Assembly: GCA_963849325.1 (NCBI GenBank)
Contig: CAWKHF010000011.1
Coordinates: 67,762-131,761 of the forward strand
Length of the DNA stretch: 64,000 nt
Direction of reading: 5' to 3'
DNA from: an uncultured Planctomycetota bacterium
GTDB taxonomy: Bacteria; Planctomycetota; Planctomycetia; Gemmatales; Gemmataceae
Shown: one piece after another, positions 10,439 to 51,561 of the stretch
Layout: each line of letters begins with the position of its first letter
Numbering within the stretch: position 1 is the first letter of the stretch
Made by a program: the position numbers and the translations under genes
Notes under the pieces: model-generated
Told to the model about the DNA's origin: nothing
The model's database searches: none
Seen by the model: only the letters and a program-made list of their open reading frames with translations

Positions 10439-10475
10439 TGGTCCCTCGCTCGCGCCCTTGCAACGATGTTCCCGA

Positions 10476-11499: not shown

Positions 11500-11526
11500 T
11501 CGAATCGACGCAAGTAGGTAATCCGT

Positions 11527-11621: not shown

Positions 11622-11644
11622 CGCACGGGCCAGACCGCAACGGG

Positions 11645-33969: not shown

Positions 33970-35505
33970 TTATTTCTTCCGAAGTCGCAGGTAGACGATG
34001 AGCACGTCCGCCTTGGGGTTTTCTTCGAGGAGTTCGGGCACCGTATTCCAGAGGCCGAAGGGTTTGGGTACTGCGCCTGGAGCAATCCTCTCCTGCCTTC
34101 GGTTGCGAATCACCCACAACATCGGCGTCTCCGTCGCGGAGCCAGCTCCACGAGAGAACGAACCACTGCTGCCCCCGTCGCTGAAGTCAAATAATTCCTT
34201 CGGCACGTCGGCGCCCCCCGCACCCGTCATAAACCACTTGTGCCATCGGTTTCCACCGATTGCCAACTGCACTTGCATCCGGCAGTGTCCCTTCCGCGCC
34301 CCCGCCAGCGGAAGGTAATCCAGGTCCGCCGCGAGTAGAGCGACCTTCGCGCGACGGAATAGGCTCTTATCCTCGGACAGTTCCGTAAAGATCCTGCCGT
34401 TGATGTCCGGCAAGGCCCAATTCGTCTTCTGTTTCTTTCCGTCCTTGTACACGTCGATGTCCACGCCAAGGGCCGTGAGCGGTCCCTCCGGTCGTAGTTC
34501 GACCTCCCTCACCTCTTTGAAGATATGGAGCAGCGACGCCACATCCCCACCATCGTCCTCGGGGTGTGTGATTTTCATCGCCAGGGTTTCTTTCGCGGCA
34601 GGCTCGGCCGCCGGTTTCGGCTCCGCCGCCGGCTTTTCCTCCGCCGCCCGCATGGGGGCGAAGAAGGAGGCACTCAGCACGCCCAGCACGCCCACCGTCG
34701 CCAGGAACGCCGTCAGGAGCTTCACTTTCGTCAGAAGCATCATTTGCAGTACCTCTTTCATGAGGAAGGCCGCCGGGGTCGTGACGGTTTGTCCCGCCGC
34801 GACCCGCAGGGCGTCGCCGGCCGTCGAAACAAGCAAAGAAGGCGATACCCAGGCGGATGCCGTCTCGCTCGACAGCGCCCCCGACAGCATCGCCGCCGAA
34901 ATCGCCAGATGGTGCCGAGCCAGTCGCTTCGCCAGCATTTGCCGAGCCGTCGCCAACCGGCTGGACAGAGTACCCTCGGGCAGACCGAGCTGCCGCGCGA
35001 CCTCCTGGCGCGATCGTCCTTCCAGATGGCACAGGACGATGGGCGTTCGATAGCGTTCCGGCAAGCGGCTCAGTTCGCGCTCCAGCAAGGGGCGCCAATC
35101 CTGCGGCTCGGCGGGCGGCACTTCGGCGGCTGTCGCCGCCTCCAAGGGCGCCTCCCGAGTGCGGCGCCGGGCGATGCTCTTGCGAGCTTGCAGGGCGGTA
35201 CGATACGCCACGCCATACAGCCAGTTCCCTATCGCCTCGCCGTTGCGCAGAGTAGGGGGCTTGTGCGCCAGCACGAGAAAGACGGCCTGGAAGGCGTCCT
35301 CCGCATCCTGGACGTGGCCCAGCACTCGCCGGCATACGGCGAACACCATGCCGCCATGACGGCGCACCAGGGCCGCAAACGAGGCTTCATCCCGGCGAGC
35401 GACGAAGCAGGCCAGGAGCTGTCCATCCGTGGCAGCCCCCTCGGCGCCGGGCGGAAGCGCTCGGTGAAGGTGCGCGAGGACTTCTTTCAGTCGGCCGCGG
35501 AGCAT
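33970..35505 (-). CDS. ECF sigma factor fused to a TM helix and about 250-aa C-terminal extracytoplasmic domain
   Basis: Region 2 is DAEDAFQAVFLVLA and region 4 is GRSRQEVARQLGLPEGTLSSRLATARQMLAKRL. A TM follows (LLTKVKLLTAFLATVGVLGVLSASFF), then a PAAEPK linker and a globular C-terminal domain of unknown family. Confidence 0.75.
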   Translation of the reverse strand: MLRGRLKEVLAHLHRALPPGAEGAATDGQLLACFVARRDEASFAALVRRHGGMVFAVCRRVLGHVQDAEDAFQAVFLVLAHKPPTLRNGEAIGNWLYGVAYRTALQARKSIARRRTREAPLEAATAAEVPPAEPQDWRPLLERELSRLPERYRTPIVLCHLEGRSRQEVARQLGLPEGTLSSRLATARQMLAKRLARHHLAISAAMLSGALSSETASAWVSPSLLVSTAGDALRVAAGQTVTTPAAFLMKEVLQMMLLTKVKLLTAFLATVGVLGVLSASFFAPMRAAEEKPAAEPKPAAEPAAKETLAMKITHPEDDGGDVASLLHIFKEVREVELRPEGPLTALGVDIDVYKDGKKQKTNWALPDINGRIFTELSEDKSLFRRAKVALLAADLDYLPLAGARKGHCRMQVQLAIGGNRWHKWFMTGAGGADVPKELFDFSDGGSSGSFSRGAGSATETPMLWVIRNRRQERIAPGAVPKPFGLWNTVPELLEENPKADVLIVYLRLRKK

Positions 35506-35595
35506 ACGACGTTCCTCTACTACTTACTGGGTCGCCAGCGTTCCGCGCGTCGATCTTTTTTCGGAATTCCGTAGCGAAAAGAAGCGTCCGCGTCA

Positions 35596-35646
35596 GAGCC
35601 CGCAGCGTCAGCGAGGAGCCATTTCCCTCGCTGACGCTGCGGGCTC
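35596..35646. terminator. 21-bp-stem hairpin ending the Hsp70/TPR gene string
   Basis: GAGCCCGCAGCGTCAGCGAGG-9 nt-CCTCGCTGACGCTGCGGGCTC, 22 nt downstream of the stop at 35668. Confidence 0.5.
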
Positions 35647-35667
35647 CGAGAAAGGAAGAGCCCGCGA

Positions 35668-36207
35668 TTACTTTTTGTCGTTGGCAGGTTTGCCCGCTTG
35701 TTCTGGCTTCTTGTCCTTGTCCGGTTTCTCGAATTTCGTGTCCGTCGCCCCGGAGTCAGACGGCGGCAGAGAACTGCGTACTCCAATGACGTAGCCGACC
35801 ATGAGGGCGCCGAAGATGAGCAGGAACCACAGCAGACTGTTGAGCAAACCCGTCGTCGCGTCGCCGTCCGGGTTCCAGTTGGCCATCCAGCGGCGAAAGC
35901 GCGTCTGCTTGCGCAGCTTCTGGAGCCAGCGACGGCCCGGCGCGGTCTGATCGAACTGGCGCACGGCCGTGGCCACCTTGCCGACCTGCCGCCGTGCCGT
36001 GGCGTTGTCCGGATCGACTTCCAGCACGGCCAGGTATGCCCACACGGCCTCGCCCAGTTCGCCGGCGCGGGTCAATGCCTCCGCCTGAGACAGCCCCTCG
36101 CGAAGGTCATCGACGTAGTGGACCAGCAGCGACACATCCGTGCGGCAGTTGAGGCACTCCTTCTCCAGCCCGCGCAGCTTTTTCTTGCACATCGGGCACG
36201 TCAGCAT
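35668..36207 (-). CDS. Zn-ribbon / TPR-like / single-TM protein
   Basis: MLTCPMCKKKLRGLEKECLNCRTDV (4 Cys), then a TPR-like helix pair (AEALTRAGELGEAVWAYLAVLEVDPDNATARRQ). A TM follows (LLNSLLWFLLIFGALMVGYVI), then a Lys-rich tail. Start 36207 is preferred because 36229-36285 is a REP copy. Confidence 0.5.
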   Translation of the reverse strand: MLTCPMCKKKLRGLEKECLNCRTDVSLLVHYVDDLREGLSQAEALTRAGELGEAVWAYLAVLEVDPDNATARRQVGKVATAVRQFDQTAPGRRWLQKLRKQTRFRRWMANWNPDGDATTGLLNSLLWFLLIFGALMVGYVIGVRSSLPPSDSGATDTKFEKPDKDKKPEQAGKPANDKK

Positions 36208-36228
36208 GGGTGGCGTCCTTGAGTGTCC

Positions 36229-36285
36229 ATCCGAGCCGCGACCGTTAGGGAGCGGAGACACCGCTCGCTAACGCTCGCGGCTCGG
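36229..36285. repeat. REP-like palindrome, ATCCGAGCCGCGACCGTTNGGGAGCG family (intergenic copy)
   Basis: ATCCGAGCCGCGACCGTTAGGGAGCGGAGACACCGCTCGCTAACGCTCGCGGCTCGG. A near-identical copy at 41909..41966 lies inside a CDS. Confidence 0.7.
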
Positions 36286-36297
36286 CTCGCCAGCAGG

Positions 36298-38036
36298 TCA
36301 CAGCAAATAGGCGTAATTGAGCAAGCGATCGTTGAGCGTGGCGCTGGCGTCTTCCATCTTCTTGCGATCGCCCGAACCCATCGCCTGGCGCACGATCCGG
36401 CACAGTTCCTCCAACTCCTTGCGATCTTCCGGGTTGTCGATGCGCGGGATGACGTCCTGCTCCGTCTTCTTGAGCACCTCAATGGCGTCCTTGTACTCCT
36501 GCGTGCTCTCCAACTCCAGCGTGCGATTGACCAGCTCTTCGTTGATGCGCTTCAGCTTGATGAGCTGCGAAGCGTCCATCTGATCCTCGCCGGCCTGCTG
36601 GATGGCGAAGCGCTTTTTCTGGCCGGCGTAGGGATCGTGGATTTGCACGGTCAGAATGCCGTCGTCGCCGTACTCGAACGACACGTCGAGTCCGCCGTCG
36701 CGTTGCGGCCGCGGCGGCTTGAACTCCCAGGGGATTTCCGCCAGCTTGACGTTCTCCGGCGAATCCGGGTTGTCGTACAGGTCGCCTTCGTAGACGCTGA
36801 TGAGCACGCGGTCGGCGGGGTCGGCCACCGGATAATACATCTTGCTGAACGAACACGGAATGTCCGAGCCGCGCTTGATGATCGGATCGAGAAAGACGCG
36901 ATTGGTGCGCTGATCGACCGGGTTGGCGCACAGCGAATGCTCCAGCTTGACGCTGTAGGCGTAATTGTCCAGGCCGGGCGCCCCTGCAGGATGGCCGACA
37001 CGATGGCGGCGCCCTGGGCGACGCACGTCATCGGATCGACGCGATCGAACCCCTCCGGCTCCTTGCCGGCCAGTTTTTCCGCGACGTAACGACGGACCAG
37101 GGGAATCTTGCTGGTGCCGCCGACGAGCAGCACGCGATCGATGTCGCGCGGCCGCAGCTTGGCCAGCTTCATCGCCTCGTCGATGGCCGTGCCCGACTTG
37201 ATGACCAGCGGCATGATGAGACGCTCGAACTCGCCTCGGCTAAGTTCCTCTTCCAGGCTCAGGTGTCGCTCCGGCACCAGCTCGGCCTTGCGAGCGACGG
37301 CCATCTGCTCCGCGGACAGGTCGATCTTGGCCCGCTCGACGGCGAGCATGAACTGTTGCCTGTATGGCGAATTGAGGATGTCGAAGCCGGTCTTGTCGTG
37401 GAAGCGCTCGGCCAGCACCTTGGCGAGAATGGCGTCGAGGTCGTCGCCGCCGAGCTTGCCGATACCCTTGCTGGCGACTTCCTCGAAGATGCCGTGATGG
37501 ATCTTGAGGACCGTCACGTCGAGCGTGCCGCCGCCGAAGTCGTAGACCAGCACGGTTTGATCGTCCTGGGCATTGAGTCCATAGCAGATGGCGGCGGCGG
37601 TCGGTTCGTTGATGAGCGTCAATACCTGAAGACCGGCGGCGCCGGCGCATAGCTTCGTGGCGTGGCGCGCCAGACCCTTGGAGTTGGCCGGAATGGTCAC
37701 GACGGCCTTGGTGAAGCTCTCGCCCAGGACCGACTCGGCGTCTTTCTTGAGCAGGCTGAAGAGCATGACGGCGATCTGCTCGGTGCGCAGGTTCTGGCCG
37801 ACCAGCGGCACGCGCTCCGGCGTGCCGAGGATGCGCTTGATGGAGCGAATCGAGCGCTGCTCGTCGAAGTTTTCCTTGGCTTCCTGACCGAAGGCGAGGG
37901 TGCCGTCGCGGCGCAGCGTGACGATGGAGGGCGTCCACTTCAGCCCCTCGTGATTGGGCACCACCTCGGCCTGACCGTACTGGAAGTTGGCCACCACCGA
38001 ATTGCTGGTCCCGAAGTCGATGCCGATGTAGGGCAT
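36298..38036 (-). CDS. Hsp70-family ATPase (non-canonical DnaK paralog), one frameshift near 36985
   Basis: IGIDFGTSNSVVA, VVTIPA, LINEPTAAAICYG, VYDFGGGTLDVTVL and VLLVGGTSKIPLV in ORF 36651..38063 (ATG 38036). The substrate-binding-like and helical C-terminus is in ORF 36298..37026. Confidence 0.85.
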
Positions 38037-38054
38037 GGAAGCTACCTCATGAAG

Positions 38055-38271
38055 AAAAACCACGAATCACACGAATAAGAAGCTGTAACTTTTTGGCGAG
38101 CGGGGGGCGTAAGCCCCCTGTTTTTCGCCGTCAACAGGGGGCTTACGCCCCCCGCTCGCCTATTTGGGTAGTGCCTCTAAGACAAATAACCGTGCCACCG
38201 GCGCCTTGCCCACTTCTTATTCTTTTTCTCTTCTTCTTTATTCGTGTGATTCGTGTGATTCGTGGTTTTTT
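38055..38271. repeat. nested inverted repeats filling the grpE-like/hsp70 spacer
   Basis: The outer arms are AAAAACCACGAATCACACGAATAAGAAG (38055-38082) and CTTCTTTATTCGTGTGATTCGTGTGATTCGTGGTTTTTT (38233-38271). The inner perfect 26-bp palindrome is GGCGAGCGGGGGGCGTAAGCCCCCTG-14 nt-CAGGGGGCTTACGCCCCCCGCTCGCC (38095-38160). Confidence 0.8.
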
Positions 38272-38278
38272 GTCTTTC

Positions 38279-38884
38279 TTATTCGGAAACGATGACCTTG
38301 GGCCGGCGCAGGACGAATTCGGGTTGCTGGCTGGCGTAGCCGCGCTCGATCTGTTCGGCGACGAGCAGCGGTCCCATGCCCTCGACGCGCTTGCTGCCGA
38401 CGCGCTCGTGGATGGCCGGGTTATACGCGGCGCTGATGACGGCGTCATACGGCTGAATACCGTGCCGCAGCAGGGCGGCGTCCACCTTGCGCGACTCGAC
38501 CTCGACCGCTTCGATCCAGCGCTTCACCGCCTCCAGGTCATCCAGCGACGGGCGGGCGGCGACGATGGCCCGCAAATCGTGAGCGGTTTCGATTAACTCG
38601 TTGAGCAGGGCCAGGCTGACGCGCTTCTCGCCGTGCGTCTCCTGCCGCAGCTGTTGGTAGGCGCGCTGCGTGTCGGCCGCGAAGCTGTTGAAGCTCGTCT
38701 TCAGCTCGTCGCGGACCTTGTTGAGCGTCTGCTCCAGAGAGCGCAGCTGGCGCTTGTCGTACTCGCGCAGGGCGATGACTTCCTCGCACAGCTTGTACAT
38801 CGTGGAGGAGCCGAGCGTATCGAGATCGCGGGAGGTCCCCGGTTCGGAGTTGCCGGGCACGCCCTGCAAAAAATCAGCGCTCAT
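38279..38884 (-). CDS. GrpE-like nucleotide exchange factor
   Basis: ATG 38884 (MSADFLQG..) within ORF 38279..39415. A coiled-coil region is followed by the GrpE C-terminal pattern ..HGIQPYDAV..YNPAIHERV...V.EQIERGY....EFVLRRPKVIVSE. Confidence 0.65.
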   Translation of the reverse strand: MSADFLQGVPGNSEPGTSRDLDTLGSSTMYKLCEEVIALREYDKRQLRSLEQTLNKVRDELKTSFNSFAADTQRAYQQLRQETHGEKRVSLALLNELIETAHDLRAIVAARPSLDDLEAVKRWIEAVEVESRKVDAALLRHGIQPYDAVISAAYNPAIHERVGSKRVEGMGPLLVAEQIERGYASQQPEFVLRRPKVIVSE

Positions 38885-38894
38885 TTCGGTAGTC

Positions 38895-39415
38895 CTAGTT
38901 CGGAATTCGGACTTCGAGTTCAATGGCCCAGGGATCCAGCGGTTGTTGTACGAGACGTTCGAGCAGCAGCGGCACGGCCGGCACCTCTTCGGGCACCTTG
39001 GGCACGACCAGGGCGGCACGGACGGCGTTGACGTTCGGGCACTTCGGCGGAGGGCCGGTAGTCGGCCAGCGCCTTCTCGCTGTCCTGCGGCTGCCACAGG
39101 CGACCGGCCTGGCCGTCTTCCACGCCGTAGCGCCGCGAACTGCGCCAGCACGCCGTCGCTGGTGTCGGCGTTGAGGCTGGCGGCGTCGGCCCGGATGCGC
39201 CGCTCGGTATCGTGCAGGACCTCGCGGGCCCAGTTGATGTCCTCCAGCGGGACCTTGGATTGTCCCTTCCGCGCCCACTTCAGACGGTCGGCCCAGTGGG
39301 CGTCGATGGCCTTCTGGTCCGCCGCCTTGTCGAGACCGAGCAGCAGAAACGGCCCCACCTGCTCGCGCGGCAGCGTGGCCAACTCCAGCACAACGGGTTC
39401 CGGACTTCGACCCAT
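38895..39415 (-). CDS. J-domain-like protein lacking HPD, two frameshifts (about 39130 and 39050)
   Basis: GPFLLLGLDKAADQKAIDAHWADRLKWARKGQSKVPLEDINWAREVLHDTERRIRAD has J-domain helix II/III spacing, but the loop reads ARKGQS instead of HPD. The C-terminus is recovered from two other frames (..YGVEDGQAGRLWQPQDSEKALADYRP / PPKCPNVNAVRAALVVPKVPEEVPAVPLLLERLVQQPLDPWAIELEVRIPN*). Confidence 0.4.
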
Positions 39416-39429
39416 AATGTCCTCTCATT

Positions 39430-39548
39430 TCACCGCAGAGGACGCAGAGAGCGCAGAGAGAAGACAGACAAATACCTTGCTCCGTCTTCGATTCTTTCAG
39501 GTTTCTCTCCTTTTCTTCTCTTTGCGCTCTCTGCGTCCTCTGCGGTGA
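39430..39548. repeat. 34-bp-stem hairpin (GCAGAG-rich arms) in the gap between the TPR and J-like genes
   Basis: TCACCGCAGAGGACGCAGAGAGCGCAGAGAGAAG-51 nt-CTTCTCTTTGCGCTCTCTGCGTCCTCTGCGGTGA (1 mismatch). Confidence 0.8.
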
Positions 39549-39557
39549 ATCTTTATT

Positions 39558-41226
39558 TTACGCGCCCATCGAGCGGCACGCTTCCATCTTTTTATCGATA
39601 TGCTCGGCCAGGTCACGCACGATGCGGCGATGTTCGTCGTTGCTGACCAGCGGCAGGCATTTGCCGGTGATACGGCGGAGCTTCTGAAACTCGCGGAGCA
39701 GGTCGCGCATCACCTCGCGCACCGCCGACCAGTTAATCTGGTAATTGGGCAGGTTGCGCACCTGATCGATGACCTTGCTCATCTGGTCGGTCAGTTGATC
39801 GCATAGGTTGCCCATCAGCGGAATGACGTTGCCGACCATGCTGATCGCCCGCTCCTCGACGCGGGTGTCGTTGGGGTAGCGCTTGAGGATGCGGTCGATG
39901 TCGGACAGCAGTTTTTCGATGTCGTTGAGTCCCTTGACCTCGATGAGGTCGAGTTCGTACAGCTCGTACTGCGGTTCGCCGGGCCGCAAGCGTCGCAGCT
40001 GCTTCCAGGGTGCGGCGGGCGTCCTGCGGCCGCTTGGACTGATTATACAGGTGGAAGAGGCGTTCGAGCGTGTCCGGGTCGTTGGGCCGCAGATGGGCGG
40101 TGCGCTGGACGTAGCTGAGGGCGCTGGACCATTTCTCTTTCTCGCCGTAGCGCGACGCGAGCCGGCCCAGGCTCTCGTAGGCCAGGTGCTCGATGTACTT
40201 CGGGATGTCCGGCGGGGCCGGCACGCCATCGTCCAGCAGGTCGAAATAGCGGTTCCAGTACGGATCGGCCTGAGCCAGTTCGCCCTTGAATTCGTAGATG
40301 AGGGCCAGGTTCTGGTGCAGGCGGGCATCGTTGGGGGCCAGTTTGATCGCCGCGGCGAAGTGCTTGATGGCGTCATCGAATTCGTGCGTCATGCCGGCGC
40401 AGCAGCCGAGCAGGTTGAGCAGGGCGACTTGCGTGGCTCGGCTGCCGCTCCGTTCGCGGGCCAGCGGACGCAGCAGCAGCTCGGCGTCGGTCCAGGCGCA
40501 GCGATCGATTAGCTCCTTGGCCTTGACGAGCACCGCCTCCAGGTACGCCTCGCGCACCGCCACGCTGCGCGGCCGGGCCTCGGTCAAGGTCTTCAGCAGG
40601 ACATGCACGGTGTCGAGCTGGCCGAGGCTGCGAACGACCTGGAGCAGGCGCTGCTCATCGTCGGAGGTCAGCTCGGCCAGGAGCGGCACGTCCGGCGGCG
40701 CGCCGTTCGCCTGGCGGCACGCCTGCAACAACGCCTGCAAGACCAGCAGGAAACGCCGTTCCTCCCGCGTCTCGCCGGGACGATGGGCCAGCAGTTCGAT
40801 GGCGTTGGGGATGAGGGCGAGACAGTCCTCGACCTTGCCGAGCGTGAGGCGCGTCAGCAGCAGGTTGTGACAGATTTCGTAGGAACCGGGGTCCATCTGC
40901 CCGGCGCGGGCGAACTCGTCCTCGGCCTGGGCCAGCTGATTCTCTTGCAGCGACAGCAGGCCCATTTGCAGGACGACGTTGGCGTCGGGCCGCTGGATCT
41001 TGCGCAGGGCGTTGCGGGCCTCGGTGAGCTTGCCCTGCCGTTTGTGGGCCAGGGCCAGCATGTATAGCACGTTGGCGTCCTGGCAGCCGGACTGGACGGC
41101 ACGTTCGAGGACCTGAGCCGCCACCTCGTAGGGCGACAGGATTGGCTCCGCAATGGGGATTACTTCGGACACAAGGCTCTCCAGTTCTGAGTTCTGAGTA
41201 ACAGAAGCACGTCGATTGTTTTTCAC
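39558..41226 (-). CDS. TPR-repeat protein (about 555 aa), one frameshift near 40010
   Basis: ORF 39733..41226 (GTG start) has multiple TPR-like A/L/Y-rich helix pairs (..ANVLYMLALAHKRQGKLTEARNAL.., ..ARLHQNLALIYEFKGELAQADPYW..). The C-terminal 150 aa are in ORF 39558..40376. Confidence 0.65.
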
Positions 41227-41241
41227 TCAGAACTCAGAACT
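41183..41241. repeat. heptamer-array hairpin (AGTTCTG)2AGT / ACT(CAGAACT)2 spanning a stop codon and the next start codon
   Basis: AGTTCTGAGTTCTGAGT-25 nt-ACTCAGAACTCAGAACT. The stop of 41234..44022 (TCA at 41234-36) lies in the right arm. The GTG start of 39558..41226 (41226) lies at the loop/stem edge. Confidence 0.8.
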
Positions 41242-44022
41242 TACTGAATACAGCAAGTCGCTGCCCGGCCCGCACCAGGGCGAGGGTCATCAACGGCCCC
41301 AGGCGGCGATCGCGCAGGCCGAGCTTGCCGGCCTCGCGGAAGCGGTCGGCCGCCTGCTCGAAGCGACCATTCTCGTAGGCCAATAGCCCCGACAGCAGCA
41401 CCGTCTGCCGCAACGGCTCGTCGAATTGCCACTCGCCCCGCCTGGGAGGATCGACGCTATTCCACCACTTGATGGCCTCGTCGTAGGCGCCGCGGTCGAA
41501 GCTCAAACGGCCCAGCATGGCGCGGGCGTAGACCGCCGACGGACTTTTCTCGACCGCGGCCACCTTCAGCAACGCTTGCTGAGCGGCAGCAACATTGTTC
41601 TGGTGCAAATAGGCCCAGGCCATCAAGAACTGACTTTCCACGGCCAGCGCCTCGTCCTCGGCGGCCCGCTGGCTCAATTCGAGGACGGTCCCGTAATTGT
41701 TCGCGGCCAGGTGGCAGACGGCGCCGAGGTAGTGGAAGCGCGGATCGCGCACCTCGGGGCGATTCATCGCCGGCGCCTGCGCCGCCAGGCCGGCTCGATC
41801 GCCCAGGACCGAGCGCACCGCCGCCAGACACCACAAGGCATCGATGTGGTTCGGATCGTCGCGCAGGCATGTCTCCAGCAAGGTCAACGAGGATGCCAGC
41901 GAGGAATGATCCGAGCCGCGACCGTTCGGGAGCGATTGCCCCCGCTCGCTCACGCTCGCAGCTCGGTTGTTGCCCAAGGTCTCGCGCAAGGCCAGCCGAG
42001 CGCCCAGGAAGGCGATGGCGGCACGGAGCGGGCCGCGGCGTCAGCCCCAGGGCGCGGTCGATGGCCTTGGCACGACGGTCGGCGTTGCCGCGCTCCTGCT
42101 CGATGATGGCCTGGCGCACCAGCGGCCAATGATCGGTCGGGGCCAGGCGGTGCCAGCCGGTGAGGAGGGCCACGGCCCCATCCATGTCGCCACGACGGTA
42201 GTTCAGGCACGCCAGCCGATCGTGTCCGGCGATGCTCGACGGGTCCAGGCGGAGCAGCACCTCGACGCAGACTGCGCCGGCTCCTGGTGCCCCGACTCCT
42301 CCTGCGCGGCGCGAGCGCTCCAGCAGGAACGATTCGCCGTGGGCCGCGTAACTGCCGCCGAGCACGCCAGGGTACTGTCCCGGCGCGCTCAGCGGCGCTG
42401 CGCTCCAGGTAGGCGTACTCGGCGTCGTCGAAGCTCCACTGCTGCTGCTCGAAGTAGGCACGGGCAGCGCCGGACTCGGCGAAGGTGCGGGAGAACAGGT
42501 CGAGATCACGGTCACTGCTGGAGCCGTGGACGGTGGCCGCCCGCACGTACAGGAAGGCGTGCCGCGGCCGGACGGCGTCGGGGAACGTGCGCGGCCAGGT
42601 GAGCGTAGGCGTCGGCGGCCTGCGGGTCGGTGGCGTGAACCGAGGCGAGCACGTCGCACAACTGGAGCTGCTCGTCCTTGCCCAGCGTCATGTTCAGCCG
42701 CCGGGCCTCGGCGTGGACGGCGCGATGAGGCCGGCCCACTCGGCGTTGTCGAAGACGGGATAGCGGGCCAGCAGGCGGATGGCCCAAGCGACGTTGCGCG
42801 GCTTGTCCTCGGGGTTGGTTGGCTTGCCCAGGGCGCCGCACAGGCCGAGATAGCCGGCCGTGAAGGGATCCTTGGGTTCTTCTTGTTCCAGGGCGATGCG
42901 CAGGTGCTTGTAAGCCTGGTCGTAGCGGCCGCAGCGGGCCAGGGACAGGCCCAGACCGCGCAGCAGCGGCACCGTGGGAGGACTGTCTTGCAGAAGCTTG
43001 GCGAAAAGGTCGGCCGCTTCCGGGAAGTCGCCGTGACGGTAATGCGCCTGCGCCATGGCGAACCGCCCCTGCCGCAGAATGACGGTCAGGTCCGGACCGA
43101 GGACGGGGCAGACGTAGGGATACTTGTTGGCCAAGCGGCGAACGTAGGAGTGTGCTTCGGGAAAGGCTTCGACCCAGGCGCGCTCCGGCCGGGCCGTCCA
43201 CAGCCCGAAGCCGCGCGGCCCCAGGGCGCGTTGCAGGGCGCGCAGGGCGAGTCCGCTATCGCCGCCCGCCGCGACGAGGGAGGCACCCATCTGGCAGGTC
43301 ACGAACGGACAGCTCGCCTCGACGCGGTTGGCCTCAGCGAGATAACGCAAACTCTCCTGCGCCTTGCCTTGCCGATAGAGCAGCACACCGAGATAGAACG
43401 CCGGATCGAGATAGTGTTTGCCGGCCTGTTCGTGCGCCGTCGCCAGGGCGGCCATCGCCTCCTCGATCTTTTCCTGGCGGACCAGGCACAACCCTTTCCA
43501 GAAGGACGCTTCCGGGCACGGCGGCCGCACGGCGAAGATGCGTTCCAGCAGGTGCAGGACGGCTTGCGTGTCTTCCCCCTCACCCCTTCCCCTCTCCCCC
43601 CCAGGGGGGAGAGGGGTTAGGGGTGAGGGGGTGGCGGCGAACAGGCGCCGCGCCTCGGCCAGCATCGCCTCGACGATGCGCGTGCGCTGTTCGTCCTGGT
43701 CCAGTCCGAGGCGAGCGCCTGCTTCGAGAGCGTGTCGCAGAGCTTCCTCGAAGTTTTTTTCCTTGAGCATCTGCTCGGCGCCGCGCTGGTGGCACTCACC
43801 GGCGACGACGCGGAGACGATCTTGCCAGACGGGCGGCAGCCGCGGCTCGGCCAGCAGGGCCGTCACGATGTCCAGCGCGGGCTGCCAGTCGCCTTGTTCG
43901 AGCAGGCGCTGAGCGTGGCGGAAGGCGCGATGGCGGCGCGGCCCGCGCCCCAGCAGCAACCACAGGCACAGCGCCAGCGAGAGCACGAAGACGGCGACAA
44001 GGAGGAGGATCTTAACAGTCAC
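41234..44022 (-). CDS. large membrane-anchored TPR protein (about 930 aa), at least 4 frameshifts (about 42725, 42585, 42378, 42035)
   Basis: The N-terminal TM is MTVKILLLVAVFVLSLALCLWLLL (ORF 42694..44022). The TPR-like sequence continues through fragments of ORFs 42512..43201, 41950..42546, 41457..42659 and 41234..41989 without in-frame stops once frames are switched. Confidence 0.6.
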
Positions 44023-44079
44023 AGCGGTCGTTTCCTTCGCGGTCCAATCCGCTCGGCGTGCAGGGGCGATCTCTCCTCA

Positions 44080-46716
44080 TTATGGCGGATTCCATCGCCG
44101 AAGGGCAGCTTTTGCTTCGCGTGTTTCGGGCGTCAGGGCGCCGTCGGCGAGTTTCTCCAGGATGCACCGCGCCTCCGACGTGCCGATGCGTTCGAGCACG
44201 GCGATGGCCCGCAGCGTCCGCAGGGCTTCCTTCGACGGCCGCCTCGGTTGGGCGAGAAGGGCCTCCAGTCGTCGGCGCATCTCCAGCGAGGGCCGGCCTT
44301 GCAATGCCCGTCGCAGCAGAGGCTCGGCTTCGTAGCATGTGCGGCTCAACTCCTGAGAAGCTGCCTCGCGCGTCCGGAACGAATCGTCATCGAGATCGGC
44401 CAACAGTTTCTCGATGTGTTGGACTTTCTTATTCGACGCCGGCTCCAGATTCGTGCGCAGCAACGGCACAGCTTGCTCCGGTGTGGCTGCCAGCGTGTGG
44501 AGGGCGCGAGAAGCCTTGCGGGCATCGCCGGCCAGATCGGACCATAGCGACGCCAACCCCTTCGGACCAAGCTCTCGCTTCGGCTTGTGGCCCGACCATG
44601 TCGAAACTTCCAGATCCCAGAGGAGAATATCTCCCTCCGCCATGCTCGCGGCGACACGACCGCCCGGCAGGGCGACCAGGGAAGGAACGTAGGGCCAGCC
44701 CAAATCGTCCAACGTCTTTGCGATGCTGTCCGGCCACGCCACCTGATGCAATTTCTCACCCGTGACTGTATCCCAGACACACAGGTTCTTATGATCCGAC
44801 ACGATCAGGGCGCGACTATCTGGGCTGAAGGCAATGGTATTGGGAGCTGGCAAGTTCAGGCGGACAACCTCCTCGCCCGTCGCCATCTCGATCAACGACC
44901 GCACCTCGATACCTTCATGCTCCGGATCTCCATCCTTCGCCGACCGGATCAACGCGGCGAGAAGTCGTCCATCGGAGGAAAAAACCAGCGGACTCTTTAC
45001 CTCCCTGGGCAACTTCGCCAGCAAACAGCCGGTCGAGACTTCCTCTATCCCCAACCGCTTGCCCAGCCAGACGCTTAACCGCTCGCCGCCCGGCGCCAAG
45101 TCCGCATGGCCGTCGCCGATTAGTCCATCGACTTCGCCGCGGATCTTAAATTGGTAGGGTCGTTGACTCAACCGTTTCCCGGAGTCCGCGTCCCAGACGA
45201 CGAGTTGCCCGGGCGGATCTTCCTCCTTCGAGTAGACCCCCGCAAAGTATTTGCCATCGGCGGAAAGGGCCGCCGTATGCAGACAAGCAATTTTCCCCTT
45301 GCCCTCCCCGTCGATGATCCGTCCCAGCGGCTTGCCATTGGTCACATTCCAGACATGAAAAGTGAAATGAACTCCGCCGGACCACTCCATGGCTCCCAGG
45401 TTTCCGGCCGCGACGCGCTGACCATCGCTGGAAAGGAAGCAGTCGGTGATGAAAAGGTTCCTTTCCTGCCATTTCCGGAGTTGTCTGCTCGTGGTGGCGT
45501 CCCACAGGCGCAGAACCCCATCGTGGTCCCCGGAGGCGATGATCTTGCCATCGGGGGAAGCGGCCAGCGCCAATCCGATCTGGTCGTGTCCGGGCCGATG
45601 GTGCAGGGAGCGACCCGAAGAGGTGTCATAAAGGCGAATGGCGCAGCCGTCATGGCAGGCGAGCGTTTTGCCGTCGGGCGCGAACGTAAGCCGGCTTCCG
45701 TGGCGTGCCGGCAATTGTTGCATTTGCTGCGCCTTCGATAGATCCCAGAGGAGTATGTGATGGGGTATCTCGAAAGTGAACCCGTGCGGGAGGTATCGGC
45801 GCGTGCCCCAAATCGCAGCAAACCATCGCCCATCCGGAGAGAAGGTAGGCTCATGGACAAAGTTTGCGGCGGCCATCGACGGTGCTCGCAACCGCGACTT
45901 CTCCTCCAGGGTATCTGCCGCCAAGAATCGAACTACCGCCTCGTCGCGTCCACCCACAGTCAGCGTCTTGCCGTCGGGCGAAAAAGCCATTGAGCCGGCA
46001 TCGATCCGGCGAAGGTTTTTCCTCGCGCGGAGCGATTGACCCGTGGTCGTGTCCCAGAGAGAAAGATCAAAACGCGAATCGACGGACGTTCCGGGGATTG
46101 TCTCGGATCTCGGCGATCCCAGCCAATCGTTTGCCATCGGATGTGAAAACAACATTCGACAGCTGGATCTCAGGAGGAGTTGCCAATGTTTGATGGAGTT
46201 GAATCGTTTCTACATTCCATATTTGTGTGACGTACTTCCGAGCGCTCGAGCACATCTGGAGCATTAAGAATTTGCCGTCCGTGGAGAATTTCATGAGTTG
46301 ATGAAGAAGGGCGGTGCCAAGGCACGGGATCCGGCCCCGTTCTCTGCCTGTACTGGTGTCGTACAGATATACCGTCTCGCCGTCCCAAGTCGCCGCCATG
46401 GTCCCGCCGGGCGACAAGGACACGGCCACGAACCGCTTATCCTTTCGCGGTTTTCCGGGCAACTGTTGTCGCCACACCAGCTTCCCCGAGGCAACGTCCC
46501 AGATGCGGATTTCGCCATCGCGGTCACAGGAGATCAACTGGCTACCGTCCTTCGAAAATACTACCTTGGCGCCGGCGTGCCGCAACCGCACCGTGCCCAG
46601 GCGAGCTACGGCGCCGGGCGGCAGCGGATCGCCATACAAATCCACACGCGGCGCCTCCCCCTTGAGAGAGCCGTGCTTCCCAGCAGCATGAGAGTGGTGA
46701 ATACCGTGCGATTCAT
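44080..46716 (-). CDS. secreted WD40 beta-propeller protein with C-terminal helical (HEAT-like) domain, 2 frameshifts (about 46655 and 46100)
   Basis: The signal-like N-terminus MNRTVFTTLMLLGSTAL was found by hand (ATG 46716). ORF 46067..46645 follows (DLYGDPLPPGAVARLGT.., DGEIRIWD), then ORF 44080..46155 with many repeats (FSPDGKTL, SPDGKIIASGDHDGVLRLWD, ..). Confidence 0.8.
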
Positions 46717-46773
46717 GACCGAATCTCCGTCAACCGCTTGCAGCCTGGCGTACTCCGTTAAGCCGCAAGCGTC

Positions 46774-49467
46774 TCAGAACGACCCTTCCAATAACCCGGC
46801 GTCATCGCCCGGTGTTAACCGTCGATTCTGAAGCAGGTTCGCCACCTTCTCGACCTCCGTCCCCAGCCGGTTCGTGTCGCGCAGCACGGCCAGCGGCTCC
46901 GTCTTGATGCGCTGACTCAGTCCCCGCGCCTGGGCGGCGATTTCGGTCAGGCGCGTCTCCAGGTCGGCGCGTTGACGTTCGCGCACCTGCTTCCACACGG
47001 AGGACAGGTAGGCGCGGAAGCGTTCGAGTTCGGCGCGGGCCTCTTCCTCGGGCGGACGGCTCGGTCGCGGCGGACGCGGCAGCGTGTCGCGCAACAGCTG
47101 CGTCAGATAGCCGCCGTACTTCTCCAGGTTCTCGTGACACTCGCGGTACAGGGCTTGGTTGTGCTCCTCGTAAGCCTGCTCGGCGTAGCGCTCCTGGGCG
47201 CGGATGTGCTCGCTCAGTTCGTCGCGGTCGCGGCCGGTCTTGTCGGCGACCTCGGCGGCCAGATCGAGGCAATGATGCACCAGCTGGACGAAGCGCGGCC
47301 AGGGTGGATCGAGTGTCTGACCGTGGCTCGTCTCCAACTGCTGCAAGAGCTCGCGCAGCTCGGCCATGCGCTGGATGGCCTTCGGCTCGTCGTCGTAGCG
47401 CAGCGCCTCGAAGAGATCCTGACGGATTTGCTGCGCCCTGGCCCGCAGGCGCGTGCGGAAGCTGCCGCTGAACTGCGGTAACAGATCGTCAATTTGCTTC
47501 TGCACCTCGTCGATGTCGGCGCGGGTCGGCCGTCGCGGCGGCGGCGGCGCCTCGATGGTCGCCGTCTCGCAACGCTCGTAGGAATTGGACAGGCGGAGGC
47601 GCACGCGCACCTCAATGACGTGCTTGACATCGATGGCGAACTCGACCTCGACCGGCGAGCCGACCGGCAGGCTCGGATCGAGGTCTTCGATCACCATCTG
47701 TTTGACGACGCGGTTCTCCTCGAAGATGGGCACGACGATGCGGCCGGCCTGGTCGTGTGTGCGGCAGATGCACTGAAACACACCCGGCAGTGTCGCGCCG
47801 ACGGGCGCCACCACCTGCTTGACGCGCTGGCCGCCGCGCGACAGCACTTCGATTTGCAGCGGCTTGGTGATGAGCTGCGTCGGCAGTACGGCCTGGCCCA
47901 GATGCCGCGCCTCGCTCTGATGCCGCACGACTACGACGACGCGGGCCGTCTCCTGTCCGGAGCCGTCGCAAACCGCGAACTCCAGAGCGTTGTCCGTCTC
48001 CGCTTGCAGCTCCAGCTCGTGGGCGAACGTGCCGCGCTCGTCGAGAAATGCCTCCTCCGTCAGCCCCGTCGCCAGCGCCCGGATGCGCACCGAGCCGCCC
48101 TCCAGCGTGGCCTCCGTCGATTCCAGTCGCACAACGCCGGTTGCCTGGTAAGCAAGGTCACGGGTGTTGACCGGACTGGTCAGGTGCAGTCCGATGCCGG
48201 GGAAGAGATACTGTGTCCCGTGGGTCGCGGCCCGGAGGGCGGCGCCGTAAGCGACGCACAGGTCCGGCTCGTGCAGCAGCGGGTCGAGACAGCGGACGTG
48301 CTCGGGCAGTTCCGGGTTGCAGAAGGCGGCGCGGACGGTGTCGCGGACCAGGGGGACGCGGCTGGAGCCGCCGACCAGAACGACGTAATCGATGTCCGAC
48401 AGGCCCAATCCCGCTCGCTCCCGAGCGCGGGCCAAGGCGTCGCGGCAGCAATCGATGGTTCGGTCCACCTTATCGCGGATGAGACGTTGAAAGACGCTTC
48501 GCTCAACGCTCGTCTCCAGCGTGATGCCCCGGCCGTCGGCGTCGCGGACCAGGTCGGGCAGATAGCGCTCGACGCGCTCGGCATCCGTCAAGGCGATCTT
48601 GATGCTCTCGGCGGCCTGCACCAGCCCGACGAAGTTCCCCGCGCCGGCCGGCGTCGAGAGGTCGAAGAGCGCCGAGAGCGTCTCGGCCGGGACCGGCGCT
48701 GTTCGCTCGCCTTCCCGACCCGCGAACCACGAGCTATTCTCCACGAGATGCGTGGCCAGCAGGCGGTCGAAGTCGTCGCCGCCGAGAAAGGGATCGCCGC
48801 TGACCGACAGCACTTCGTAGTCGTCGAAGCGGCGGCGGATGATCGATACGTCAAAGGTGCCACCACCGAGGTCGTAGACGAGGTAAGTGGCGTCGCCGTG
48901 GCCGCCGATCCAGGAGTAATAGATGGCGGCGGCGGTCGGCTCGTGCAGCAGTTCGACCACCTCGAAGCCGGCCCGTTCGCCGGCCTGCCGGGTCGCCTCG
49001 ATCTGATTGTGATTGAAGTACGCCGGCATTGTCAGGATGGCCGAGTCGATCAGCCGGCGCGGATCGTTCAGCGTGCGGGCCAGCATGTCGCGTAGAAGGC
49101 CCAGGATGCACGCCGACACCTCCGGCGGCGTCAGCCGCTGCGGCCCCAGGGCAAACTCGCGCGGCAGACCCATGAAGCGTTTGACCGAGGCCAGCGGCAG
49201 CTGGGTGGAGGGTGCTTCTTCTCCCTCCACTCTCCACCCTCCACCCTTCACCCGTTGGGCGGCGCGGCCGGCGACGAGGCGGTCATGCTTCGGGTGATAG
49301 CCGACCAGCGAAGGGAACGTGCGATGGCCGTGTTCGTCCTGTCCGGTGAGAATCGTGCTGTCGGTGGGATCGAGCAGGGCGATGACGCTGTTGGTGGTGC
49401 CCAGGTCGATGCCGACCGTTTTGCGGATGCGGAGAGGCGATGAGGAGAGAGGAGAGGTGTGCGGCAT
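46774..49467 (-). CDS. long Hsp70-family protein (about 897 aa) with about 330-aa helical C-terminal extension
   Basis: Intact ORF; the likely start is MPHTSPLSS (ATG 49467). Motifs are VGIDLGTTNSVIA, ILTMPAYF, LLHEPTAAAIYY, VYDLGGGTFDVSII and VVLVGGSSRVPLV. A beta-rich middle is followed by a long Arg/Glu/Leu-rich helical tail. Confidence 0.8.
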   Translation of the reverse strand: MPHTSPLSSSPLRIRKTVGIDLGTTNSVIALLDPTDSTILTGQDEHGHRTFPSLVGYHPKHDRLVAGRAAQRVKGGGWRVEGEEAPSTQLPLASVKRFMGLPREFALGPQRLTPPEVSACILGLLRDMLARTLNDPRRLIDSAILTMPAYFNHNQIEATRQAGERAGFEVVELLHEPTAAAIYYSWIGGHGDATYLVYDLGGGTFDVSIIRRRFDDYEVLSVSGDPFLGGDDFDRLLATHLVENSSWFAGREGERTAPVPAETLSALFDLSTPAGAGNFVGLVQAAESIKIALTDAERVERYLPDLVRDADGRGITLETSVERSVFQRLIRDKVDRTIDCCRDALARARERAGLGLSDIDYVVLVGGSSRVPLVRDTVRAAFCNPELPEHVRCLDPLLHEPDLCVAYGAALRAATHGTQYLFPGIGLHLTSPVNTRDLAYQATGVVRLESTEATLEGGSVRIRALATGLTEEAFLDERGTFAHELELQAETDNALEFAVCDGSGQETARVVVVVRHQSEARHLGQAVLPTQLITKPLQIEVLSRGGQRVKQVVAPVGATLPGVFQCICRTHDQAGRIVVPIFEENRVVKQMVIEDLDPSLPVGSPVEVEFAIDVKHVIEVRVRLRLSNSYERCETATIEAPPPPRRPTRADIDEVQKQIDDLLPQFSGSFRTRLRARAQQIRQDLFEALRYDDEPKAIQRMAELRELLQQLETSHGQTLDPPWPRFVQLVHHCLDLAAEVADKTGRDRDELSEHIRAQERYAEQAYEEHNQALYRECHENLEKYGGYLTQLLRDTLPRPPRPSRPPEEEARAELERFRAYLSSVWKQVRERQRADLETRLTEIAAQARGLSQRIKTEPLAVLRDTNRLGTEVEKVANLLQNRRLTPGDDAGLLEGSF

Positions 49468-50016
49468 GGGTTGTCCCGCTCGTCCTTCTTCCGCTGGGGA
49501 AAAAGGAAACCCGTGGCTCGGCCGGATCGGTAGGTAGCTTATCGGGCCCGCTGAGGTGTGGAACAAATCCCGGCTTGCAAGCAAGCCGCAACGCTCAGCA
49601 CCGTATCAGCCGAAATCCAGCCAGGCAACGGGTTTCGCGGAAACCATGTGGCGTTTCGACTGGGACACCTCCTGTTTACCTCGGCCAGGAGTCGGCTTGC
49701 GGGAGACGGGATCGGGGAACACGAAATCGTTCTTTTTGGGGGAGGGCGTTGGCCACCCAAATCCGTATGTGCCGAAATCCCCTCGAGCAAACCTCCTCGT
49801 TGTTGCCCGCCCTGCGGCCCAGAGCCAGCAGAGCTTCCCGACCCACAGGCCGCGAGAAGAGCAGATGAGACGGCCTACGGGCCAGAATCTTGAAGTGCGC
49901 CTTCTAGTGCTCAACGCCTCGCGGCGTCACTGGGTGAAGTAGTCTACAACCTCACCTTATACCCCCGTACCCCCAAGTTGTCAACCATCAAATTTCTTTT
50001 TTTCGGCGCGGCGAAA

Positions 50017-50175: not shown

Positions 50176-51561
50176 ATGAGCCATCAGGGGGCGCTCACCC
50201 GGGTTGTGCCGATTCGCGCCGGCAACTCACGCCGAATCGCCGGAGTTTCCTGAAAGCCGGTGTCCTCGGCAGCGCCGGACTCAGCCTTGGCGAACTTCTG
50301 CGTCAGGAGGCGCGAGCGGTCATCTCCACCACCTCCGGGCGCAAACCGTCGGTCATCATCCTGTGGATGCGCGGCGGTCCCAGCCACATCGACATGTGGG
50401 ACCCCAAGCCAGACGCCCCGGTCGAGTATCGCGGCGAGTTCGGCGTTACGCCGAGCAAGGTGCCCGGCATCCTCCTGGGCGACCTGCTGCCGATGTCCGG
50501 CCGGATCATGGAGAAGTGGTCCATCGTCCGCAGCCTCCACCACCACGACGCCGGCCACTCCACCGGCGATCAGATTTGCTTCACCGGCTATCCCTCCGGC
50601 CCCAACCCGGACGAGAACGTCCATCCCAGCTGCGGCTCGATCGTCGCCCGGCAGCTCGGCCACGAAGATCCGCGTCTGCCGGCCTACGTGATGATCCCGC
50701 GCATGGTGCCGGGGACGGGGCCGGCCTATCTCGGCGTGGCGAACAAGCCGTTCGAGACGCTGGCCGATCCGGCCCAGCCGGGCCCGTTCCGCATGCCCAA
50801 TTTCGCTCTGCCGGCCGGCCTGACCCTGGAGCGTCTCGGCGAACGTCGCCAGCTGCTCGGCGAGCTTCGATCGCCTGCGCCGCGACGTGGACGCCGGCGG
50901 ACAGATGAACGCCCTGGACCGCTTCCATCAGAAGGCGTGGGACATCCTCACGTCCGCCGCCGCACGCGATGCCTTCGACCTGGACAACGAGCCGATGGCC
51001 GTCCGCGAGCGTTACGGCTTTCTGCCGCCGTTCGATCCCGGCGCGTCCAACCGCTGCGGCGCGCCGGCGTGGAGCCAGCGCATCCTGCTGGCCCGCCGCC
51101 TCGTCGAGGCCGGCGTGCGCCTGGTCACGGTCGATCTGCGCTGGTGGGACACGCACGTCAAGGGCTTCGAGTCGCTGCGTCTGGGCTTCCTGCCGCGCTT
51201 CGACCGGGCGTACACGGCGCTGATCGAGGACCTGGAGCAGCGCGGCTTGCTGGAATCGACGCTGGTGATCGCCTGGGGCGAGTTCGGCCGGACGCCGCGC
51301 GTCAACAACGACGCCGGCCGCGATCACTACCCCAACGTCTTCAGCGCCGCCCTGGCGGGCGGCCCGGTCAAGGGCGGCCGGGTGGTCGGCGAGTCCGACG
51401 CGAAGGGGGCGTTCCCGAAGACGAACCCCAAGACGCCGCAGGACGTGCTCGCCACGCTGTATCAGCACCTCGGCGTCGATACCGAGCAGCAATACCTCAA
51501 CAACACCGGCCGTCCCATCTCCGTCCTGCCCAGCGGCAAGCCGATCGAAGAGCTGACCTAG
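50176..51561 (+). CDS. DUF1501 (sulfatase-fold) protein with Tat-like signal, 2 frameshifts (about 50190 and 50865)
   Basis: ATG 50176, then RRSFLKAGVLGSAGLSLG (by hand, +3 frame). ORF 50367..51701 has MRGGPSHIDMWDPKP. ORF 50887..51561 has ..VIAWGEFGRTPRVNNDAGRDHYPNVFSAALAGGPVKGGRVVGESD... Confidence 0.85.

Follow-up and report, generated by a model that had tools for sequence, protein, structure and literature searches.

The 64,000-nucleotide stretch of DNA analysed here (the window: positions 67,762 to 131,761 of contig CAWKHF010000011.1, assembly GCA_963849325.1, from an uncultured planctomycete of the family Gemmataceae) carries, at 35668-49467 on its minus strand, a string of genes coding for two non-canonical Hsp70s together with GrpE-like, J-like and TPR-containing partners. 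The conserved part of this string is a unit of six genes, often with the gene for the longer Hsp70 upstream, and our leading interpretation, to which we give about an even chance, is that it encodes a self-contained, specialised Hsp70 chaperone module working at the cytoplasmic face of the inner membrane.

Gene content of the cluster

A sequence-only reading of the window had described eight co-directional minus-strand genes in this region, and both their order and their domains were confirmed using Pfam and tblastn with intact homologues. Pfam searches of the minus-strand open reading frames (ORFs) identified Hsp70 in a 936-aa ORF, WD40, two TPR-rich proteins, GrpE, a second Hsp70 and a small TPR-like protein. 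We refer to the eight genes as Hsp70L (the long Hsp70), WD40, TPR930, TPR555, J-like, GrpE-like, Hsp70S and ZnR-TPR-TM (ZnR for short; TM, transmembrane):

46774..49467, minus strand: Hsp70L, intact, 897 aa (Pfam HSP70, 1.5e-63; AlphaFold 2 model)
44080..46716, minus strand: WD40 beta-propeller protein, ~879 aa (Pfam WD40 in two frames; three-frame view)
41234..44022, minus strand: TPR930, ~925 aa (Pfam TPR; tblastn with the intact 917-aa L002 homologue in three frames)
39558..41226, minus strand: TPR555, ~545-555 aa (tblastn in two frames; AlphaFold 2)
38895..39415, minus strand: J-like protein, ~170 aa (hhalign against a J-domain profile; family alignment)
38279..38884, minus strand: GrpE-like protein, intact, 201 aa (Pfam GrpE, 46.8 bits)
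36298..38036, minus strand: Hsp70S, 579 aa (Pfam HSP70 split over two frames; tblastn)
35668..36207, minus strand: ZnR-TPR-TM, intact, 179 aa (translation; weak Pfam TPR_11 match; TM scan)

Three of the eight genes (Hsp70L, GrpE-like and ZnR-TPR-TM) are intact ORFs. The gene lengths first put forward do not agree with the ORF map, because several genes switch reading frame midway, as seen in frame plots of third-codon-position G+C (GC3) and in tblastn searches, and those lengths run silently over the frameshifts.

A conserved six-gene unit in Gemmataceae

One genome per GTDB species was scanned with the TPR555 C-terminal domain as the query, using two peptide patterns, which yielded 47 loci. 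Adjacency was then scored only where the contig permits it (48 loci counted):

TPR930 followed by TPR555: 39 of 42 loci
TPR555 followed by J-like: 38 of 39 loci
J-like followed by GrpE-like: 34 of 37 loci
GrpE-like followed by Hsp70S: 30 of 33 loci
Hsp70S followed by ZnR: 23 of 25 loci
Hsp70L directly upstream of TPR930: 16 of 35 loci

The co-occurrence of an Hsp70/GrpE-like/J-like/TPR core, which the sequence-only reading had proposed to check by neighbourhood search, was borne out: adjacency reaches 88-97% in the testable cases, and the core recurs in distant lineages. The J-like gene comes directly after the TPR555 C-terminal domain practically always (38/39 loci). Two other members of the original gene set fared less well. 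The long Hsp70 is indeed linked, in 16 of 35 loci, but this is only about half of them; and the WD40 gene, found in the window and in L004-L007 (39-49% identity), is absent from L002, L003 and most other loci, so that we rejected it as a component of the module. WD40, which has a weak codon-usage signal in the window, is a lineage-specific insertion outside the conserved module. Because the core adjacencies are high, Hsp70L is often present and WD40 occurs only in the closest relatives, the conserved unit comprises six genes (TPR930, TPR555, J-like, GrpE-like, Hsp70S and ZnR), with Hsp70L as a frequent seventh. The genes flanking the unit show no conservation across loci, and the unit is therefore self-contained.

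All 47 loci come from metagenome-assembled genomes (MAGs), mostly labelled Gemmataceae, Gemmatales or Planctomycetota; the few that bear other taxon labels look like binning or annotation errors. No cultured Gemmataceae strain is among the 47 loci of this two-pattern scan, and either the module is missing from the cultured genera or its carriers there escaped both patterns. Hsp70L has many close relatives labelled Gemmataceae.

Both Hsp70s and the J-like protein lack the elements of canonical J activation

Both Hsp70s belong to the HSP70 superfamily (Pfam PF00012: 1.5e-63 for Hsp70L; 4.2e-84 plus a substrate-binding-domain piece for Hsp70S). Neither is a housekeeping DnaK: against the NCBIfam DnaK equivalogs PRK00290/TIGR02350, with a cut-off of 648 bits, Hsp70L scores 228.8 bits and Hsp70S 323.1 bits, and both fall far under the cut-offs of the HscA models. 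These scores, together with the gene content, rule out a housekeeping dnaK operon, as the sequence-only reading had concluded. The catalytic residues D8, K70, E171, D194 and T199 (DnaK numbering) are kept in both Hsp70 families, while R167 is replaced by T in all aligned Hsp70S sequences and by E in all aligned Hsp70L sequences. In DnaK, R167 is the residue that contacts the aspartate of the J-domain HPD motif. The hydrophobic VLLLD interdomain linker (389-393) is absent as well, reading APGLD in Hsp70S and also differing in Hsp70L.

Hsp70S possesses a nucleotide-binding domain (NBD), a substrate-binding domain (SBD) and a lid, ends in an invariant LLNYAYLL and, with 82-95% identity, is conserved more strongly than any other member of the module. 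Hsp70L carries the long helical tail described earlier. An AlphaFold 2 model (pLDDT 87.2), for which the best structural matches in the PDB are full-length DnaK, places an NBD at residues 1-415, an extra beta domain at 418-516, the SBD-beta at 537-638, a nine-helix tail at 649-880 and then a disordered end, after which comes an invariant GLLEG, conserved in 17/17 loci.

Stimulation of the Hsp70 ATPase requires the His-Pro-Asp (HPD) motif between helices II and III of the J-domain. The suggestion that the J-like protein lacks it was upheld by the family alignment and by profile comparison: HPD was found in 0/38 locus-derived J-like sequences and in none of the distant representatives examined, the position being RKG-like. 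The J-like family profile matches a J-domain profile with an hhalign probability of 92.8%. The window's own protein gave no match to Pfam DnaJ (PF00226) at E <= 1, whereas matches of distant members cover the whole model, at 26.4 and 20.3 bits (gathering score 27.8); PDB searches returned weak matches, to DNAJC5 only. Judged by these profile comparisons, the N-terminal domain is probably homologous to J-domains. Its C-terminus bears a conserved LDPW motif. A charge swap between K/R of the J-like protein and E172 of Hsp70L was considered and is not claimed, the alignment at the HPD position being ambiguous.

The GrpE-like protein matches Pfam GrpE (PF01025) with 46.8 bits against a cut-off of 25.8, over profile positions 13-165. 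It lies well under the NCBIfam GrpE equivalog cut-offs and is therefore a divergent member of the family.

TPR proteins and membrane topology

A scan for TM segments found them in TPR930 (residues 1-26) and ZnR (119-147) only. In TPR930 this segment forms an N-terminal anchor followed by a basic stretch. ZnR contains an N-terminal CPxC...CxxC zinc ribbon, TPR-like helices, its TM segment and a short Lys-rich tail, and is tail-anchored; the zinc ribbon and the TM segments noted previously are thus present. From the basic flanks of the TM segments (positive-inside rule), we infer that the bulk of both TPR930 and ZnR is cytoplasmic. The WD40 protein does have a signal-peptide-like N-terminus, MNRTVFTTLMLLGSTALS, as had been pointed out. 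The proposal of repeat scaffolds on both sides of the membrane was not supported, since it rests on this non-conserved protein and since TPR930 and ZnR are predicted to face the cytoplasm. There are weak Pfam matches to TPR-S ('sensor') in the cluster.

The last 147 aa of TPR555 form a highly conserved five-helix bundle (86-88% identical to L002/L003; AlphaFold 2 pLDDT 88.7), for which we found no sequence match in the PDB and no significant Foldseek match to a known fold (best E = 0.08). A word-index search for homologues of this bundle turned up fragments only.

Versions of the module beyond Gemmataceae

When 1.84 billion proteins were searched exhaustively (HMMER) for the N-terminal domain of the J-like protein, only 99 cluster representatives came back, with 0 canonical DnaJ proteins among them. 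The module was found in lineages ranging from 35% to 72% GC. In L051/L052 (35% GC), the order is SH3b-TM-TPR, TPR, the C-terminal part of TPR555, J-like, GrpE and Hsp70, the last being 57% identical to Hsp70S. L053 (64% GC) retains J-like, GrpE and Hsp70 in this order. In two loci of 72% GC (L057, 1958-6244; L058, 3-3944), a single protein of about 1428 aa combines TPR930 with TPR555, and the J-like gene comes next. Such a fusion is classical evidence that two proteins function together, and it therefore suggests that the two TPR proteins do so.

Some features of these distant loci stand apart. The TM-TPR protein of L051 (2-3271) bears four periplasmic bacterial SH3 (SH3b) domains, and the N-terminal part of TPR555 is there a separate gene (3315-4748), fused to a phosphopantetheine-binding (acyl carrier) domain. 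In L057/L058, an SBP_bac_10 protein follows the J-like gene, and neither GrpE nor Hsp70 comes next within the contig.

A model for the module

In the machine that we propose, Hsp70S would be the ATP-driven engine, reset via nucleotide exchange by the dedicated GrpE-like protein, and the J-like protein would serve as an adaptor for targeting and coupling by way of a remodelled J/Hsp70 interface, in which HPD is lost on one side and R167 and VLLLD are lost in both Hsp70s on the other. Anchored by the N-terminal TM segment of TPR930 and the C-terminal TM segment of ZnR, these two proteins and TPR555 would form a TPR platform, which could dock the C-terminal peptides LLNYAYLL of Hsp70S, GLLEG of Hsp70L and LDPW of the J-like protein. 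By analogy with the docking of EEVD on TPR domains in eukaryotes, the terminal motifs probably dock on TPR domains. Hsp70L, which carries the additional beta domain and the long tail of helices, may be a second partner of a holdase type or similar to Hsp110. The client would presumably be a protein or complex associated with the membrane, which the machine assembles, remodels or takes apart. The physical contacts, the roles of the partners, the face of the membrane and the existence of a specific client are all things that we infer here, and the envelope-associated client or signalling role put forward by the sequence-only reading is purely hypothetical.

Several points weigh against this model. 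No client gene was found in the cluster or conserved beside it. With HPD and R167 gone, the J-like protein might instead have no action on these Hsp70s at all. The HPD-equivalent position is itself ambiguous, since hhalign inserts a gap where an ungapped Pfam-style alignment gives RKG; the J-domain sequences in one alignment and the E. coli DnaK reference for the residue table were entered by hand. Since the TPR555 C-terminal domain was the sole recruiting gene, the synteny figures hold only for loci that have it. Finally, some loci depart from the pattern: Hsp70S is missing after GrpE-like in L026, L035 and L043, nothing follows TPR555 in L020, and in L001 Hsp70L stands alone beside a transposase.

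The remark that no function has been described for this combination held up, in that we found no description of the architecture in the literature and no matching PADLOC system. Dedicated Hsp70/J/GrpE sets are already known (PMC9239167, PMC11019930), and DnaK derivatives of such a kind were called unexplored in a 2026 review (PMC13580251). The synteny that locks an HPD-less J-like protein to a private GrpE and to Hsp70s lacking R167 and the linker makes the module a natural co-evolved set, and it is this concerted loss of HPD, R167 and linker within tight synteny that we consider most worth testing. The module could show how an Hsp70 cycle is controlled without canonical J stimulation, and how TPR proteins recruit bacterial Hsp70s to membranes. 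With 99 cluster representatives in 1.84 billion proteins, the J-like family is both small and clean, and the fusion and the invariant termini make the interaction hypotheses testable in vitro; all the carriers found are uncultured.

A bolder extension, which we think is doubtful, is that this Hsp70 machine has abandoned J activation through HPD, R167 and linker altogether, and that the J-like protein, the TPR platform and the two co-evolved Hsp70s constitute a new mode of control at the membrane. Gemmataceae are known for their elaborate internal membranes. Were such a mode of control real, the module might remodel or uncoat membrane-associated assemblies in these bacteria, and would then be the bacterial counterpart, in function, of Hsc70 paired with a membrane-targeted J protein.

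Alternative functions

The strongest competitor to a chaperone module is a regulatory switch, in which an Hsp70 cycle running on the TPR platform at the membrane would detect or pass on the state of an envelope process and control a downstream output. Most of the known specialised bacterial Hsp70s act in this manner (PMC9239167, PMC8265645): the Hsp70-like StkA and SglK of Myxococcus and the cyanobacterial DnaK1/DnaJ3 are switches of exopolysaccharide and motility. The four periplasmic SH3b domains of the low-GC TM-TPR protein would fit a link between the wall or periplasm and a cytoplasmic Hsp70 set, and the weak TPR-S matches point the same way. However, neither within the cluster nor next to it is any output domain or regulator (kinase, sigma factor or cyclase) conserved: the window does have a sigma-like gene and a kinase adjoining the cluster, but elsewhere these are not syntenic. 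In addition, the TPR930 of Gemmataceae has practically no extracytoplasmic part. On balance, we regard a switch as a serious but unlikely explanation.

We give still less credit, and indeed little, to an NTP-dependent conflict or defence system in which the TPR arrays would sense an invader and the Hsp70/GrpE/J set would provide thresholded activation. It is true that HSP70, GrpE, a second HSP70 and DnaJ- or TPR-fused proteins occur together in the neighbourhoods of GAP1-N2 GTPases (PMC7159879), and that the module is patchily distributed (MAGs only, with 0 cultured Gemmataceae among the 47 loci), has variable flanks and spans lineages of 35% to 72% GC. Against this, the cluster contains no GTPase, no FNIII and no effector domain (nuclease, protease, TIR or pore), and a search of PADLOC-DB v2 gave only a marginal TPR match (PDC-M71B, E = 1.7e-4), with no match for Hsp70L, Hsp70S, J-like, GrpE-like or ZnR. 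Moreover, Hsp70S is 82-95% identical across genomes in which Hsp70L and TPR930 have diverged to ~45-70%, which therefore indicates strong purifying selection and not the diversification of an arms race, and the module genes diverge in parallel, as in vertical descent.

Frameshifts in the window

The cluster contains at least 10 small frameshifts in 13.8 kb, spread over five of its eight genes, as identified from frame views, tblastn with intact homologues from the related contigs L002 and L003, and alignment to L004; detection over the whole window used a codon-model Viterbi and Pfam split tests. By gene, they are:

WD40, two: ~46660 (in a G5 run) and ~46090
TPR930, four: ~42730, ~42590, ~42380 and ~42035
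TPR555, one: ~40002 (1-nt insertion relative to L004)
J-like, two: ~39133 and ~39035 (indels relative to L004)
Hsp70S, one: ~36981 (one base missing, CAGGG-GCG, in the DNA alignment to L004)

All are indels of 1-2 nt relative to L004, the closest short-read homologue, and several fall in G/C runs. On both sides of each shift 60-88% identity is kept and a strong GC3 coding signal continues; the two frame segments of Hsp70S, for example, are 88% and 86% identical to homologues in tblastn. Outside the cluster and divergent from it, a DUF1501 gene (50367-51561, plus strand) is split between frames near 50865-50900, with profile positions 9-180 in one frame and 186-389 in another. Among the 47 related loci, each gene is a single tblastn segment in MEGAHIT and SPAdes assemblies, while the genes of long-read 'MFD' loci (Nanopore-type) and of ENA assemblies are split likewise. 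Fragments of the cluster genes in protein databases contain garbled stretches.

Because the DUF1501 gene outside the cluster is shifted too and the short-read relatives are intact, the frameshifts in the window are most likely long-read assembly errors and not signs of decay, and as probable errors they lead us to treat the genes as functional. It is very improbable that the shifts are genuine and that this genome carries a decaying array of pseudogenes, as their number, the five of eight genes hit and the transposase that interrupts the cluster after Hsp70L in the related L001 might suggest, given that DUF1501 is frameshifted as well, that identity and GC3 signal persist on either side of shifts of just 1-2 nt, several of them in G/C runs, and that the same splits recur in other long-read 'MFD' and ENA assemblies and in none of the MEGAHIT or SPAdes ones.

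Comparison with known systems

Like the canonical DnaK-DnaJ-GrpE system, the module encodes an Hsp70 with NBD, SBD-beta and lid, co-encoded with a GrpE-fold partner and a J-like one, and keeps the catalytic residues. It differs in that its Hsp70s, at 229 and 323 bits, stay far under the DnaK equivalog cut-off of 648 bits and lack R167 and VLLLD; in that its J-like protein has neither HPD nor the Zn-finger and C-terminal client-binding domains of DnaJ; and in the addition of an 897-aa second Hsp70 and three TPR proteins, two of which are membrane-anchored.

The cyanobacterial DnaK1-DnaJ3-GrpE system, which connects type IV pili with the secretion of polysaccharide (McDonald et al. 2022, PMC9239167; reviewed in PMC12288463), is likewise dedicated and distinct from the housekeeping set: its Hsp70 has a J partner and a GrpE of its own, TPR repeats are associated with the J partner, and it acts at a membrane machine. 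There, however, the TPR is fused to a J-domain protein annotated as a DnaJ homologue and the genes lie near pilBTC, whereas here the J-like and TPR proteins are separate, HPD is lost, and there are two Hsp70 paralogues; kinship between the two was judged only at the level of the Hsp70/GrpE/J superfamilies. No pil genes were found in the flanks examined.

SglK (MxDnaK2) of Myxococcus xanthus is also a specialised Hsp70 with a private GrpE (MXAN_6672), the two being bicistronic (PMC11019930). Heat does not induce it, and its effects are on surface-related traits (PMC8265645). Unlike the Hsp70s of the module, which fall under the class cut-off, SglK is a DnaK of the PRK00290 class that complements E. 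coli dnaK (PMC8265645), and no TPR or J-like genes have been reported in its unit.

In the GAP1-N2 GTPase systems (Kaur et al. 2020, PMC7159879), HSP70, GrpE, a second HSP70-family protein and DnaJ- and TPR-containing partners come together as they do here. These systems, mainly from actinobacteria and firmicutes, have their own traits, namely a GAP1-N2 GTPase and an FNIII-repeat protein (PMC7159879), and their second HSP70 lacks the peptide-binding domain (PMC7159879); the module has no such traits. Neither a TRAFAC-class GAP1-N2 GTPase nor FNIII was found in the eight genes or their immediate flanks.

Eukaryotic Hsp70, Hsp110 and the TPR co-chaperones (Hop, CHIP, Sgt2) offer an analogy in two respects: a long paralogue stands beside an Hsp70 of standard size, and conserved C-terminal peptides could dock on TPR domains. 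Pam16 offers another, as a J-like fold without HPD. Here, though, the terminal motifs are GLLEG and LLNYAYLL and not EEVD, and no HPD-bearing J protein is encoded beside the J-like one. We found no specific sequence or structural kinship with this eukaryotic set of Hsp110, TPR co-chaperones and Pam16, and the best PDB match of Hsp70L is DnaK. In the predicted structure, the resemblance of Hsp70L to Hsp110/Grp170 appears to be one of architecture only (an enlarged SBD region and a long helical tail), the top structural matches being to DnaK.

Intergenic gaps, hairpins and a promoter candidate

With gene starts placed by homology, the gaps between the eight genes are as follows:

Hsp70L/WD40: 57 nt
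WD40/TPR930: 57 nt
TPR930/TPR555: 7 to ~55 nt, depending on the start codon chosen
TPR555/J-like: 142 nt
J-like/GrpE-like: 10 nt
GrpE-like/Hsp70S: 242 nt
Hsp70S/ZnR: 90 nt

Three of them (142, 242 and 90 nt) thus exceed the range of 7-58 nt that the sequence-only reading had given. For TPR555, a hairpin lies at 41183-41241, and the start codon near 41180, downstream of it, is the probable true start. The hairpins in or next to the larger gaps, with minimum free energy (MFE) z-scores relative to shuffled sequence where given, are:

39429..39549, no strand assigned: hairpin with 36-bp arms that fills the TPR555/J-like gap (MFE -80.1 kcal/mol, z = -12.7)
38046..38270, no strand assigned: nested hairpins in the GrpE-like/Hsp70S gap (MFE -120.2 kcal/mol, z = -12.1), with an outer stem of CACGAAT heptamer repeats and a perfect inner stem of 28 bp (38095-38160)
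36224..36292, no strand assigned: hairpin in the Hsp70S/ZnR gap (-52.9 kcal/mol, z = -4.7)
35593..35649, no strand assigned: 24-bp hairpin just 3' of the last gene, among the terminator-like sites

The last of these is possibly the end of the transcription unit, by its position; no excess of terminator-like sites was seen. The long hairpins remarked on earlier are therefore real and very stable, but they are not specific to the cluster, since equally long or longer intergenic palindromes occur across the whole window. Near-perfect long intergenic hairpins lie at 19765-19820, 21921-22013, 22756-22855, 24837-24893, 31958-32016 and 51584-51650 as well as in the gaps of the cluster, and in many of them the arms are built from tandem copies of a heptamer and of its complement, namely (AGGGAAT)n, (GAGTTCT)n and (CACGAAT)n, with the same heptamer families at unrelated sites. 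Across homologous loci the hairpins vary in sequence, size, presence and position: some genomes have none, and different heptamers occupy the same junctions. Upstream of the Hsp70S ATG, the sole conserved element in the alignment is a GAGGT ribosome-binding site. Because they are window-wide and vary among homologous loci, the hairpins are a trait of the genome and not of the cluster, and are uninformative about operon structure; we accordingly rejected them as cluster-specific regulatory elements. The window contains no Rfam matches and no tRNAs.

A sigma-70-like promoter candidate, TTGACA-17-TATAAG, was read from the sequence at 49956..49984 on the minus strand, ~490 nt upstream of the Hsp70L start, which would imply a long leader. 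TTGACA-N17-cAGAAT boxes lie directly upstream of Hsp70L in L003, L017, L018, L020 and L037.

Within TPR930, a 57-nt G/C-rich palindrome at 43575-43631 (CCCCCTCACCCCTTCCCC.../...GGGGTGAGGGGG) lies in frame and encodes ...SPLTPLPPGGERGRGEGE..., and a near-identical palindrome is an insertion in the TPR555 gene of L004 (9179-9231), at a different site. The pattern resembles that of a mobile palindromic element inserting into genes without breaking the frame, and recalls the Rickettsia palindromic elements.

Neighbouring genes and other parts of the window

Directly downstream of the cluster, at 33970-35505 on the minus strand, lies a gene whose 511-aa product has ECF-type sigma-70 regions 2 and 4 within residues 1-190, followed by a C-terminal extension of ~320 aa; the gene is not syntenic with the cluster elsewhere. 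Links between the cluster and this ECF-like sigma gene (33970-35505), RecQ, a Ser/Thr kinase or DUF1501 were considered and rejected, since conservation of these neighbours does not reach beyond the closest relatives. In L001 (10001-13762 of the locus, in a 9.33-Mb contig), Hsp70L is 81% identical to that of the window, and what comes after it is a DDE transposase and then unrelated genes; the upstream kinase and DUF1501 are >90% identical to those of the window, and the rest of the module does not lie within 10 kb. At the far end of the window, positions 1-15000 have a G+C of 0.58-0.60, against 0.62-0.70 elsewhere, and show almost no coding signal under a codon model trained on the cluster; these first ~15 kb may be foreign or otherwise atypical DNA.

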